This document shows positions 50,030 through 52,829 of a stretch of DNA of 64,000 nt, one piece after another. The stretch covers positions 26,403 to 90,402 of the forward strand of contig CBDTUI010000001.1 of NCBI GenBank assembly GCA_965363765.1, in the 5' to 3' direction. Made by a program: the position numbers and the translations under genes. Every line of letters begins with the position of its first letter. The stretch's first letter is position 1. Source of the stretch: an uncultured Acidimicrobiia bacterium (GTDB taxonomy: Bacteria; Actinomycetota; Acidimicrobiia; Spongiisociales; JAENVV01). The notes beneath the pieces were generated by a model, which made no database searches, was not told the DNA's origin, and saw only the letters and a list, made by a program, of their open reading frames with translations.

Positions 50030-50920
50030 GTGGCTGGGAAGTTAATGGGTTCAATCGAGGCGGGGGGCACCAAGTGGATTTGTGCTGTGGGAACCAGTCC
50101 GTCTGGCATTGTTGCTGAGACGCGTATCGACACCACCAGTCCAGCCGAAACCCTGGGTCTCGTACTCGACTTCTTCCGCTCCCAGCCGGTCATCGAAGCC
50201 GTCGGCGTGGCTTCGTTTGGGCCACTGGAGTTGCGCAAAGATCATCCCAAATTCGGGTACATCACGACCACACCCAAAGAGGGCTGGATGGACGCCGATC
50301 TGGTCGGTACCATCGGCGATGGGCTCGGAGTTCCTGTTCAACTCGACACCGATGTCAACGGGTCTGCCCTCGGTGAGGGCCGATGGGGTGCGGCCCAAGG
50401 CGTGGGGTCGTTTGTTTACTTGACGATCGGAACCGGGATCGGCGGGGGAGCAGTGGTGGGAGGCGAACCCGTTCATGGACTCGCTCACCCGGAGATGGGC
50501 CACGTCTCGGTGACCAGGCATCCAGACGACGGATTTGGCGGGCTATGCCCGTATCACGGTGACTGCTTCGAGGGGCTGGCCGCCGGCCCGGCAATTGTGG
50601 CCCGCTGGGGAGACGAACCGCGCTATCTGGCTCCAGCCCTTGGTCGGTCGGCAGCTGAGATGGAGGCTTTCTACGTTGCAGAAGGCCTGCGGGCCATCGT
50701 GTTTACATTGGCGCCAGAGCTGATCATCGTGGGCGGTGGTGTATCGCATATGGATGGTTTCTTTCCGGCGGTACGGAGTGCCCTCATCACGACGCTCGCT
50801 GGCTATCCGGGTCTTCCCGAGCATTCGTCGGATGCTTTTGTTGTACCGCCCGGACTCGGCGACAGGTCGGGGATTGCTGGTGGATTCGTCCTTGCTGAAC
50901 GAGCTGTCCGAACCCCGTGA
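50030..50920 (+). CDS. ROK family sugar kinase (glucokinase/fructokinase-like)
   Basis: IEAGGTKW N-terminal ATPase motif. ROK Zn motif (GLAHPEMGHV...CPYHGDCFEG). An alternative start is ATG 50045. Confidence 0.8.
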   Translation: MAGKLMGSIEAGGTKWICAVGTSPSGIVAETRIDTTSPAETLGLVLDFFRSQPVIEAVGVASFGPLELRKDHPKFGYITTTPKEGWMDADLVGTIGDGLGVPVQLDTDVNGSALGEGRWGAAQGVGSFVYLTIGTGIGGGAVVGGEPVHGLAHPEMGHVSVTRHPDDGFGGLCPYHGDCFEGLAAGPAIVARWGDEPRYLAPALGRSAAEMEAFYVAEGLRAIVFTLAPELIIVGGGVSHMDGFFPAVRSALITTLAGYPGLPEHSSDAFVVPPGLGDRSGIAGGFVLAERAVRTP

Positions 50921-51852
50921 CCGACCAGTTGCCTCCATTCGCAACTTCGCCTCCCGAACGACCGGGAAAACCGGTCGCGACGCAGGCGATCGACGCAGAC
51001 CTGGTCCGAGCGTTGCTTCGCTCGCAGTGTCCGATGTACGCCGATCTTCCTCTCATCAAGGCGGCCACCGGGTGGGACAACGAGATGTATCGGCTCGGCG
51101 ACGAACTGGCCGTTCGGCTCCCTCGCCGCGACATTGCCGCTCCGAACATCACCAACGAGCAGCGTTGGCTCCCTGGCCTGGCTCCGGCGCTTCCAATCCG
51201 TGTTCCAGTCGCCATCGTCAACGGGACACCGGAGTTTGGCTATCCATACGGGTGGAGTGTCGTGAATTGGGCAGCAGGCACAACGGCCGCTTCGAGCTCG
51301 CTGCTTCCTGCCAACGCCGGCGCCATTGCGAAGTTTCTGGTGGCCCTTCACAGCCAGGTCCCGCCCGACGAAGCGCCGGTCAATCCGTGGAGAGGGGGCC
51401 TTCTGGCCGAACGCACCGAAGCCGTCGAGGAGCGCCTAGAGGTCGTTTTCCGAAAAGACCCTGAACTCGGAGTCACGCACGCGGACACTCTCAGACTCTG
51501 GAAGGCAGCATCTCAAGTGACGATCGATCTTCCCGCCACCTGGATCCACGGTGATCTGCATCCCAAGAACCTGATCGTCGACGAAGGCATCATTGTCATG
51601 GTCATCGACTGGGGAGATATCTGCGTTGGTGATCCCGCTACCGATCTGGCCGCAGCCTGGATGTTGTTTGATGCCCTCGCGGTTGAGGAATTTCGGCAGT
51701 CATATGGGAACATTTCGGAGGCAACGTGGTTGCGTGCCCAAGGCTGGGCCATCTACTTCGGAGCCGTGCTGTTGCTCAACGGATTGGCAGACGACCAGGC
51801 CTTTGCCGCGGTCGGACGGCGCACGCTGAATAGAGTGGGAATGAGTCGGTAA
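50917..51852 (+). CDS. Aminoglycoside-phosphotransferase (APH) fold kinase family protein
   Basis: Brenner motif HGDLHPKNLIV and IDWGD. The start overlaps the ROK stop. Confidence 0.75.
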   Translation: MTDQLPPFATSPPERPGKPVATQAIDADLVRALLRSQCPMYADLPLIKAATGWDNEMYRLGDELAVRLPRRDIAAPNITNEQRWLPGLAPALPIRVPVAIVNGTPEFGYPYGWSVVNWAAGTTAASSSLLPANAGAIAKFLVALHSQVPPDEAPVNPWRGGLLAERTEAVEERLEVVFRKDPELGVTHADTLRLWKAASQVTIDLPATWIHGDLHPKNLIVDEGIIVMVIDWGDICVGDPATDLAAAWMLFDALAVEEFRQSYGNISEATWLRAQGWAIYFGAVLLLNGLADDQAFAAVGRRTLNRVGMSR

Positions 51853-51955
51853 CCCCGCCGGCTGTCCGCGAGATTATTTTTGGCTACTGAGAACTATTTC
51901 CAGTGTCGGGTGTCAAAGCGGTATACATCAGCTCGGTCAACTGAAGGAGGCCATT

Positions 51956-52768
51956 ATGAAGCTCGGTGAAATGGGAACGAAGGTACGTGATTCGATCGTC
52001 GGAACCGTCAAAGGCGCCGGCACGGTGGCCGACACAACGGTCAACGAGATCAAGGACACGACAGTCAAGGTGTTGAAGGGCGCTGGTGGCATTATCCACG
52101 GCGGAACCGACGCAGTTGGCGATGTTGTATCAGGCGCATTGAGCGCTGTCGATGATATCGGCGGCGGTATCCTCAAGGTTGCCAAGGGTGTTGTGCTCGG
52201 TGTAGTTGGCTCGGTTGGCGAAGTAGCGACTGTTACCGCCGGGACGATCAGCGACATTGTTCGCGCAGCGATCAAGGGTACGTCTGAGATTGGTGGCGAC
52301 CTAACGGCTGCCGCCAGTGGCACGGCCCAGGGTGTCATGGGTGGCGCCAAGGAAGTAGGCATGTCGGCTACCGACGCAGCCTTCACCCTCGCCAAGTCCG
52401 TTGTGACGGGTACGACTGAGGTCGGTGGCGACCTCATCGGCGCCGTGACCGGCACCGTTCAGGGTGCCGTCAAGGGCGCATCCGAAACGGGTGGCGATGT
52501 ACTCGGTGCCATCTCGAACACCGCTCGCGGCGCAGTCCGCGGTGTAGGTGAAGTTGGCGGCGACATCGCCGAAGTAACCCGCACGACCATTTCGGCTGCC
52601 ATTGGTGCTGCCAAAGAGGTCGGTCTTGGAGTCGAGGATGCTGCTTCGGCAGCCGCCACCGGCGCCATGGAAGCGGCTGGCAACATTGGCGAGTCCGCAG
52701 TGAACGCGGTCACCGGTGTTATCGGTACCACCGTCGACGGTGTGAAGGTTGCTGTCAAAGGCCAGTAA
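51956..52768 (+). CDS. 22-residue tandem-repeat protein (Gly/Ala/Val/Thr-rich, apolipoprotein/LEA-like 11/22-mer periodicity). Unknown function.
   Basis: Strong RBS GAAGGAGG. No signal peptide. The motif E(V/I/T)GGD recurs every 22 aa (for example EVGGDLIGAVTGTVQGAVKGASETGGDVLGAISNTARGAVRGVGEVGGDIAEV). Followed by a strong terminator. Confidence 0.7.
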   Translation: MKLGEMGTKVRDSIVGTVKGAGTVADTTVNEIKDTTVKVLKGAGGIIHGGTDAVGDVVSGALSAVDDIGGGILKVAKGVVLGVVGSVGEVATVTAGTISDIVRAAIKGTSEIGGDLTAAASGTAQGVMGGAKEVGMSATDAAFTLAKSVVTGTTEVGGDLIGAVTGTVQGAVKGASETGGDVLGAISNTARGAVRGVGEVGGDIAEVTRTTISAAIGAAKEVGLGVEDAASAAATGAMEAAGNIGESAVNAVTGVIGTTVDGVKVAVKGQ

Positions 52769-52796
52769 GGCACTCTGACTAAACCGAACCAAAAGG

Positions 52797-52829
52797 AGGC
52801 CCGGGCGTTTGCCCGGGCCTTCTTGTTTT
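52797..52829. terminator. Bidirectional rho-independent terminator (for the repeat-protein gene on the plus strand and argS on the minus strand)
   Basis: 10-bp GC stem AGGCCCGGGC/GCCCGGGCCT with loop GTTT, followed by TCTTGTTTTG and preceded by AACCAAAAGG. Confidence 0.8.

Follow-up and report, generated by a model that had tools for sequence, protein, structure and literature searches.

The gene, its signals and its conservation

The window analysed here is a stretch of 64,000 nucleotides (nt) from an uncultured Acidimicrobiia bacterium (contig CBDTUI010000001.1). At positions 51956-52768 it holds a gene for a protein of 270 amino acids (aa) built from tandem 22-residue units, which lies between two genes of the ROK and APH kinase families on one side and a convergent argS gene on the other. 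A preliminary description of this DNA had presented the gene as a stand-alone, highly expressed unit with a strong ribosome-binding site and a strong terminator, and its product as an unrecognised repeat protein with the periodicity of apolipoproteins and late embryogenesis abundant (LEA) proteins. We analysed the open reading frame (ORF), the 22-residue periodicity of its product, the ratio of nonsynonymous to synonymous substitution rates (dN/dS) and the codon bias, and we modelled the protein with AlphaFold2. The gene and its signals are located as follows.

51911-51955, + strand: conserved leader or promoter-proximal block, GTCA(A/G)AGCGGTA(T/C)ACATCAGCTCGGTC(A/C)ACT-GAAGGAGGCCA, from an alignment of the window with orthologous loci L001-L005
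51944-51950, + strand: Shine-Dalgarno sequence AAGGAGG with a 5-nt spacer to the ATG, read from the sequence and identical in six orthologues
51956-52768, + strand: coding sequence with an ATG start, 270 aa plus stop
52793-52824, both strands: intrinsic terminator hairpin with a 14-bp stem (10 G-C pairs) followed by a T-run, found by a consensus scan

The reading frame, the ribosome-binding site and the terminator were all borne out. The terminator hairpin, which is common to the repeat gene and the convergent argS, has a folding energy of -36.2 kcal/mol (z = -4.9), and 0 of 200 shuffled sequences folded equally well; a GC-rich hairpin downstream of the gene is also seen in L001. Codon use is biased: the gene has an effective number of codons of 39.2, whereas the mean across the window is 48.8 +/- 4.4, and GGC and GGT together account for 91% of the Gly codons in the gene, against 58% elsewhere in the window. 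Judged from the terminator, its folding energy and the codon bias, the gene is likely a highly expressed monocistron, as had been proposed; it is probably among the most highly expressed genes of its locus, with an abundant product.

Scanning one genome per species, we found five orthologues, all in metagenome-assembled genomes (MAGs) of Acidimicrobiia (L001-L005). All five are exactly 270 aa long and 92-94% identical to the window protein over the best aligned segment (query residues 1-257), with dN/dS of about 0.05 at dS 0.66-1.05 (0.02-0.06 at dS 0.2-1.2). The gene is real and under strong purifying constraint. The order ROK - APH - repeat gene - argS is identical in L001, where it was checked, and between the window and that genome the repeat protein is 94% identical, compared with 83% for ArgRS, 75% for the ROK kinase and 69% for the APH kinase; dS is 0.66 for the repeat gene versus 1.4-2.5 for its neighbours. 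By these comparisons the repeat gene is among the most conserved of its locus, and its slower evolution relative to the adjacent ArgRS fits a tightly packed fold.

Conservation extends upstream of the start codon. The 45 nt 5' of the ATG are nearly unchanged across the six loci and the DNA farther upstream varies; the proteins of the upstream neighbours diverge by 17-31% between genomes that share this near-invariant leader. The leader may have a promoter or operator role. An Rfam scan returned nothing above threshold in the leader, and terminator-like matches below threshold only. Within the block, GCGGTA(T/C)AC may serve as a -10 or operator element, and an invariant AGAACT box lies ~27 nt farther upstream.

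Three long antisense ORFs (172, 163 and 104 aa; 51937-52792, - strand) overlap the gene. Because dN/dS supports the + frame, these are not genes; the GC-rich Gly/Ala/Val codon composition accounts for them.

A 22-residue unit and a predicted helical solenoid

The composition is as first described, rich in G, A, V, T, E, D and K, and G (53 residues), V (42), A (42) and T (30) alone make up 62% of the protein, followed by I, K, D, S and E. Cys, Pro, Trp and Tyr are absent from all 270 residues. Charged residues number 48 of 270 (18%), the protein is acidic (net charge -8), and its grand average of hydropathy (GRAVY) is +0.44. There is no N-terminal hydrophobic segment, and the highest 19-residue Kyte-Doolittle window, at 1.6, is internal (residues 72-90); the absence of a signal peptide and of cysteine, also part of the preliminary description, thus holds.

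We measured periodicity by BLOSUM62 autocorrelation against 300 shuffles. The z-score was 9.3 at lag 22, 10.1 at lag 44 and 8.1 at lag 66, compared with a weak 3.3 at lag 11 and -4.9 at lag 2. A register table places twelve 22-residue units at residues 1-264, in line with the earlier count of at least eight to ten, and the consensus of the units is E1 V2 G3 G4 D5 h6 x7 G8 A9 V10 p11 G12 T13 V14 p15 G16 A17 V18 K19 G20 A21 x22 (h, hydrophobic; p, polar; x, any residue), with Gly at positions 4, 8, 12, 16 and 20 and Val, Ile or Leu at positions 2, 6, 10, 14 and 18. Two elements of the earlier account did not survive this analysis. The motif E-(V/I/T)-G-G-D, said to be present in each repeat, was overstated, being exact in 4 of the 12 units (residues 111, 155, 177 and 199) and partial (E-V-G) in two more (residues 133 and 221), with the remaining units degenerate; and the supposed 11-residue component amounts to the lag-11 signal, the consensus not consisting of two similar 11-mers. 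Tandem Repeats Finder detected no array in the DNA, and the repeats are therefore old.

On a helical wheel, Gly lies ~190-230 degrees from Val/Ile/Leu, Ala falls at 300-350 degrees and polar residues fall at 125-180 degrees, such that each helix has a small or apolar arc of ~220 degrees and a narrow polar stripe. The hydrophobic moment (muH) of the helices is 0.26-0.56 (z 1.6-3.4). A beta-solenoid reading, prompted by a 180-degree peak on the Eisenberg scale, was rejected because the lag-2 autocorrelation is strongly negative and the AlphaFold2 model is confidently helical; the peak appears because the Eisenberg scale scores Gly as apolar.

From an alignment of 8 sequences, AlphaFold2 predicted 12 helices of 17-19 residues separated by turns of 3-4 residues, with a predicted local distance difference test score (pLDDT) of 75. 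From 51 sequences it returned identical helix boundaries with a pLDDT of 84.6 (74-85 for all five models) and a predicted template modelling score (pTM) of 0.75; pLDDT is 92-97 in the C-terminal half, and a short beta hairpin is predicted at residues 259-264 in this 51-sequence model. The preliminary description had held that a beta-rich or disordered prediction would count against it, and the prediction is all-helical, with 12 helices. The long amphipathic helices that it had expected are replaced in the model by short ones of ~18 residues with G-G-D turns. The protein can be divided into three parts.

Residues 1-110 (51956-52285, + strand): five degenerate, more polar units (helices 1-5), pLDDT 59-79 per 10-residue block
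Residues 111-198 (52286-52549, + strand): canonical block of 88 residues (four helices), its E-x-G-G-D turns falling at residues 111, 155 and 177; the 365-aa homologues contain this block once more
Residues 199-270 (52550-52765, + strand): hallmark C-terminal region, helices 10-12 and the beta hairpin, pLDDT 95-97

The first part matches the long-form homologues described below along its whole length and may cap the N-terminal end of the helix stack. The last, with the sequence EVGGD...AKEVG...EDAASAAATGA...GVKV in the window protein, is the most conserved stretch of all family alignments; it contains the hallmark EVGGD...A.EGAI..AKE.G...EDAASAAA.GA..AA..IG......GVKV (residues 199-264), which aligns with all subfamilies. 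Superposing the model and a de novo designed helical-repeat protein gives a template modelling (TM) score of 0.83, and no natural solved structure is close to the model. The predicted fold is a two-layer solenoid of six stacked helical hairpins, that is, the tandem stacking of helix-turn-helix units found in solenoids and designed helical repeats, and it would suit the three packing faces and one polar face seen in the sequence.

A family of repeat domains and its partners

The window protein matched no Pfam family even at E <= 10, LEA_4, Phasin_2 and Perilipin included; a search of NCBIfam gave noise only, and sequence searches of the PDB (with the single sequence and with two profiles) gave no convincing natural match. 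The PDB profile matches comprised designed repeat proteins, a phage tape-measure segment, apolipophorin-III (ApoLp-III, 1eq1; E = 0.037) and alpha-synuclein (E ~3). The ApoLp-III match came with the broad family profile, and the long-form profile leaves nothing natural; we read all of these matches as reflecting composition and periodicity. The literature on YihY/BrkB, on GlgE together with a response regulator and on glycine-zipper repeats yielded nothing describing the family. The suspicion that the family is an unrecognised one was well founded: a clear match to a characterised family, which had been named beforehand as an outcome that would overturn the preliminary description, was absent from the Pfam, NCBIfam and PDB sequence searches, and by these searches the repeat domain is a family undescribed by Pfam and NCBIfam. 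On the defining features of each, the window protein falls outside the LEA, apolipoprotein, perilipin, phasin and calcyanin families.

Word-indexed homologue searches were dominated by low-complexity words and returned 7, 10 and 39 proteins, and we used instead an exhaustive search of 1.84 billion cluster representatives (clusters at 50% identity) together with a metagenome scan. The exhaustive search found 375 relatives at E <= 1e-3, 54 of them at E <= 1e-10, and the family occurs in Acidimicrobiia, Dehalococcoidia and Nitrospirota. The metagenome scan gave long stand-alone forms of 269-370 aa that align end to end with the window protein. Their alignment has 29 invariant columns, mostly Gly and Ala, which argues that every repeat keeps a conserved identity of its own, as it would in a defined fold. 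The homologues of 364-370 aa correspond to the 270-aa form plus one clean insertion of 88 residues, or four helices (L061, L053, L070), indicating that repeat number changes in whole four-helix blocks. Homologues with this insertion are found at the following loci.

88-residue-insertion homologues: L061:1000-2094; L053:63-1160; L044; L058:5392-6501; L070

We ran Pfam on 150 family representatives and found the receiver domain REC in 10 and YihY/BrkB in 9, with single representatives carrying DUF502, CBM48/AMPK1_CBM, HMA_2, DUF2934 or Cation_ATPase_N; the repeat region itself was never covered by any Pfam model. Isolated sub-threshold matches in the same set, to Chlorosome_CsmC (5e-5), Senescence (1.8e-4) and Phasin_2 (6.3e-4), may be compositional and are taken as leads only. 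Phasin_2 and Chlorosome_CsmC are, as their names indicate, families associated with storage granules or the chlorosome envelope.

Several of these architectures recur in characteristic gene contexts. Proteins of ~303 aa composed of the repeat and a C-terminal REC domain are annotated 'response regulator' in Dehalococcoidia MAGs. At L091:6214-16909, glgE and treS-mak flank the repeat-REC gene, each only 3-14 nt away from it, and malQ, glgB and a second gene with CBM48 and alpha-amylase domains follow downstream of treS-mak. At the other repeat-REC loci checked, treS-mak and the downstream genes likewise come after the repeat-REC gene, and TreS and maltokinase models score above their cut-offs in repeat-REC loci. 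Gene order suggests that the repeat-REC protein is an uncharacterised response regulator that forms part of the GlgE alpha-glucan operon in Dehalococcoidia-like bacteria. In P0003, a glycogen-binding CBM48 is fused to the repeat domain (24 cluster members; among those listed, 15 have the full 283-290 aa). The closest non-orthologous relative of the window protein, P0001 (48% identical to the query), has an N-terminal REC domain followed by the repeat, and its gene starts 2 nt after a gene for a double-domain KaiC-like ATPase (L007:6476-9329; also L008 and L009).

Other members adjoin genes for lipid synthesis or membrane proteins. The gene for P0127 (214 aa) ends 9 nt before a gene for a wax ester synthase/diacylglycerol acyltransferase (WS/DGAT) on at least four contigs (L011:8001-10108; also L012-L014), and this neighbour scores 397 bits against TIGR02946, for which the cut-off is 310. 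A conserved cluster has the order HMA_2 - DUF5132 - HMA_2/transmembrane (TM) - repeat - HMA_2, the first HMA_2 protein being a small one, and adjoins one or two genes for P-type ATPases whose N-termini are HMA_2-like. Scanned against NCBIfam, the ATPase of L006 came closest to Ca pumps, below the cut-off. Aligned by hhalign, the subfamily linked to CoBaHMA (HMA_2) and to WS/DGAT matches the long form with a probability of 99.85% (E = 8e-31, 179 columns), and on this profile comparison the two are homologous. The cluster of HMA_2, DUF5132, repeat and P-type ATPase genes in these distant members parallels the neighbourhood of the calcyanin gene ccyA in Microcystis, and metK lies beside the ATPase gene in L006 and L092/L093. 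In three loci, a YihY/BrkB gene is located divergently upstream of a short stand-alone member; such neighbours echo the BrkB fusions and suggest a physical partnership. Near members, genes for GroEL, MscS-type channels and DUF748 were each seen three or four times, and trehalose-synthase genes are among the neighbours of some loci. The loci of the recurring arrangements are these.

Other repeat-REC loci: L087:2230-11141; L088; L036:948-6328; L025; L079
HMA_2 (CoBaHMA)/DUF5132 clusters: L006:169-5423; L092:598-7490; L093; L094; L095:67-6747; L096:118-3127; L010:284-6812; L015
Divergent YihY/BrkB genes: L034:4514-5446; L049:2-589; L057:211-1140

The neighbours of the long stand-alone forms are heterogeneous (methylase, glyoxalase, Lhr, sigma factor, Maf, LUD, NhaA, CorA and transposases). 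The window gene is surrounded by ROK, APH, ArgRS, sigma factor, ABC transporter and similar genes; glycogen or lipid genes, looked for elsewhere in the window, are not among its top families, and neighbours of the kind found at calcyanin loci (CoBaHMA, DUF5132, transporter) are absent around the gene. A tblastn search against plasmids gave no match for the repeat protein. The genes for the ROK-family kinase and the APH-family phosphotransferase (50030-51852) overlap by 4 nt, an arrangement kept in L001, and the pair is probably co-transcribed. The ROK kinase resembles the fructokinase ScrK, below the NCBIfam cut-off, and identification of the APH neighbour as a maltokinase was ruled out (BLASTP E = 1.7; no NCBIfam match).

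Possible functions and known systems

We favour, with a probability of roughly 0.4, a reading in which the gene product is a cytoplasmic, non-enzymatic all-alpha repeat protein acting as a rigid scaffold or adaptor surface. Six hairpins, made of twelve ~18-residue helices with G-G-D turns of 3-4 residues, would stack as a two-layer solenoid in which the wide small or apolar face of each helix (the Gly zipper and Val/Ile/Leu, with Ala beside them) permits very tight helix-helix packing and the one narrow polar stripe faces solvent. The resulting rigid surface would dock onto or organise other proteins or bodies, the most plausible partners being storage-polymer or inclusion machinery or membrane-transport machinery, and it might also self-assemble; the protein would be neither an enzyme nor a lipid-inserting amphipathic helix. 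We infer the scaffold or adaptor role because of the fusions found across the family (to REC, YihY/BrkB, DUF502, CBM48 and CoBaHMA) and because of its gene contexts. The stand-alone copy in the window would accordingly be abundant and have a structural or adaptor function, and it may share the link to storage bodies.

Several points weigh against the scaffold reading. Residues 1 to ~100 are modelled at a pLDDT of only 59-79, AlphaFold2 can idealise low-complexity helical repeats, and the fold is a prediction. Stand-alone long forms, the window gene included, lack conserved neighbours, and the functional contexts come from subfamilies at only ~30-40% identity, which may have diverged in function. 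Those contexts are also varied (alpha-glucan, neutral lipid, Ca-ATPase, BrkB, GroEL, MscS and KaiC), which may make one common theme doubtful, and 'scaffold' is itself a broad category.

The most credible alternative, although we consider it unlikely, is that the protein is a surface-active coat whose hairpins are closed in solution and, as in apolipophorin-III, open onto lipid droplets, polymer granules or stressed membranes. This is the reading nearest to the lipid-binding amphipathic helices of apolipoprotein, LEA or perilipin type that were initially suggested. The protein is predicted to be all-helical and its helices are amphipathic, as a coat would require; however, a Gly-x3-Gly helix followed by a turn, with an arc of ~220 degrees and only a narrow polar stripe, suits burial within the protein, and the helical wheel does not support the lipid-binding type. 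The match of ApoLp-III to the broad family profile speaks for a coat but is lost with the long-form profile, and the weak single matches of relatives to Chlorosome_CsmC, Senescence and Phasin_2 have no counterpart in the window protein, for which Pfam returned nothing. Hydrophilins are, by established criterion, strongly hydrophilic, and a protein with a GRAVY of +0.44 and 18% charged residues is not one of them; Pro punctuation is missing, as is a strong 11-mer signal. The apparent high expression of the gene fits a coat, but very strong purifying selection and position-specific conservation of Gly and Ala are atypical of loosely constrained coat or LEA proteins. The storage or stress role proposed at the outset receives weak support from distant members, through the subfamily 9 nt upstream of WS/DGAT, the CBM48 fusion, the GlgE operons, the sub-threshold matches, and the GroEL, MscS and trehalose-synthase genes near some loci; it receives none at the window locus, where lipid and glycogen genes are missing from the top families.

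A more speculative and rather doubtful proposal treats the whole family as the natural counterpart of designed helical-repeat proteins and as a general organiser or coat module for storage bodies, distantly related to the calcyanin GlyZip, that different lineages plug into alpha-glucan systems (via REC/GlgE operons and CBM48), neutral-lipid systems (via WS/DGAT) and Ca or mineral systems (via the CoBaHMA/DUF5132/Ca-ATPase clusters). The stand-alone protein would in that case be structural, abundant and granule- or envelope-associated.

Three further readings are less likely than that of a coat protein. There is a small chance that the protein is a self-assembling cytoskeletal or filament element, with uncapped solenoid ends stacking head to tail into fibres or sheets. 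Its predicted fold is that of the designed helical-repeat proteins used for crystals, cages and fibres, its probable abundance and slow evolution are typical of structural proteins, and repeat number in the family varies by whole 88-residue blocks. Both ends, however, have what resemble caps, namely the more polar N-terminal helices and the conserved C-terminal beta hairpin, and the frequent fusion of one end to REC or BrkB suggests a monomeric module.

Calcyanin (ccyA) is the marker of intracellular amorphous CaCO3 formation. The third of the three GlyZip motifs in its C-terminal domain has a conserved Trp and Glu. The motifs are of ~50 residues with Gly-x3-Gly spacing, a central Gly-Pro and predicted helical hairpins (PMC8890360; bioRxiv 10.64898/2025.12.07.689555), and in many species this domain is fused to CoBaHMA (PMC8890360; bioRxiv 10.1101/2024.07.07.602159; bioRxiv 10.64898/2025.12.07.689555). 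We consider it improbable that the window protein is a remote relative or functional analogue of this (GlyZip)3 domain, working with CoBaHMA, DUF5132 and cation transporters in Ca handling or mineral inclusions. Tandem Gly-x3-Gly helices, paired as hairpins in the prediction, are common to both, but the window protein has units of 22 or 44 residues and 12 helices in place of three ~50-residue motifs, and with neither Pro nor Trp it has no central Gly-Pro and no conserved Trp. One family member is fused to HMA_2, and the homologous subfamily (hhalign 99.85%) occurs in HMA_2/DUF5132 clusters beside Ca-type-like P-type ATPases, much as the ccyA neighbourhood of Microcystis contains DUF5132, a CoBaHMA-DUF454 protein and a Ca/H exchanger (bioRxiv 10.1101/2024.07.07.602159); the window gene, by contrast, has no such neighbours, and the NCBIfam search, which gave no hit at E <= 10, did not match the GlyZip-containing PdsO model cited in the calcyanin paper, if that model is in the library. 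The relation to calcyanin is a resemblance and not demonstrated homology, GlyZip having been compared by description only.

Far less probable still is a membrane-inserting or pore-forming glycine-zipper protein, like the LXG toxins of type VII secretion systems or VacA. Glycine-zipper motifs do occur in membrane-depolarising toxins (PMC12744356), and residues 72-90 reach a Kyte-Doolittle value of 1.6, but that is the only segment to peak so high, and Lys, Asp and Glu are present in the helices. The protein has no LXG or secretion signal and no Pfam domain, no immunity gene is adjacent, and an acidic net charge of -8 with housekeeping-like conservation does not suggest a toxin; the gene is, moreover, chromosomal and syntenic in orthologues (order checked in L001), with no plasmid match. 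Finally, the notion that the locus holds no protein-coding gene, only a chance ORF in GC-rich DNA or a real gene on the opposite strand, for which the overlapping antisense ORFs could be cited, is refuted by the dN/dS result in the + frame and by hundreds of homologues, and also opposed by the constant 270-aa length of all orthologues and by the Shine-Dalgarno site and terminator that bound the gene.

The domain family comprises ~375 clusters at 50% identity in several phyla, none of it covered by a curated family or a solved structure. Should the predicted fold prove correct, this would be a natural protein almost superposable on idealised de novo designs, of interest to protein designers and structural biologists alike. 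The family also gives a handle on the receiver-domain protein in GlgE operons of Dehalococcoidia, on the function of YihY/BrkB membrane proteins, and on the CoBaHMA/DUF5132/P-type-ATPase clusters, a parallel to the calcyanin system, itself unexplained, of bacteria that form CaCO3.

Like LEA_4 proteins and hydrophilins, it is a Gly-rich tandem-repeat protein with helical propensity, some of whose relatives lie near trehalose, GroEL or MscS genes; it differs from them in its positive GRAVY, its weak 11-mer signal, its predicted folded state, its dN/dS of about 0.05 and its lack of any match to their hidden Markov models (HMMs). With the exchangeable apolipoproteins (apoA-I, apoA-IV, apoE and apolipophorin-III) it shares a 22-residue helical periodicity and up-and-down amphipathic helices, but it matches none of their HMMs, has G-G-D turns and no Pro, carries little charge, has a wide apolar arc, replaces class-A charge patterning with Gly-x3-Gly and shows strong position-specific conservation. 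Phasins, perilipins and the chlorosome proteins CsmC and CsmD are likewise small, abundant, non-enzymatic helical proteins, associated with storage bodies, and one relative (P0127) is in an apparent operon with WS/DGAT, with isolated weak matches among the 150 relatives; the window protein, however, matches none of these HMMs, has another repeat architecture, and has no polyhydroxyalkanoate (PHA), lipid or chlorosome genes near it. Calcyanin (GlyZip)3 has Gly or another small residue at every fourth position and hairpins repeated in tandem, as predicted here, and in one homologous subfamily only the likeness extends to a CoBaHMA (HMA_2) fusion or cluster, DUF5132 and Ca-type transporters. In the window protein, units of 22 and 44 residues are repeated 12 and 6 times without Gly-Pro or Trp, and the protein is more polar, is confidently predicted to be a soluble solenoid, and has no N-terminal CoBaHMA or X/Y/Z domain; calcyanin is found in Cyanobacteria or Methylococcaceae, whereas the present family is found in Acidimicrobiia, Dehalococcoidia and Nitrospirota.

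Helical solenoids offer further comparisons. The designed helical repeat proteins (DHR series; 5cwb, 5cwd and the repeat arm of 8cwy) are artificial and only 11-20% identical to the window protein, and their cores are Leu-rich in place of its Gly/Ala zippers; the window protein is a natural one with distinct N- and C-terminal elements. HEAT, ARM and TPR solenoids have no sequence relationship to it, their best structural matches reach a TM score of only ~0.3, and its helices are shorter and more regular, with Gly/Ala-rich packing. Nevertheless, the window protein and its relatives resemble these natural solenoids in their predicted use of stacked helical hairpins as docking surfaces and in their modular fusion to other domains.

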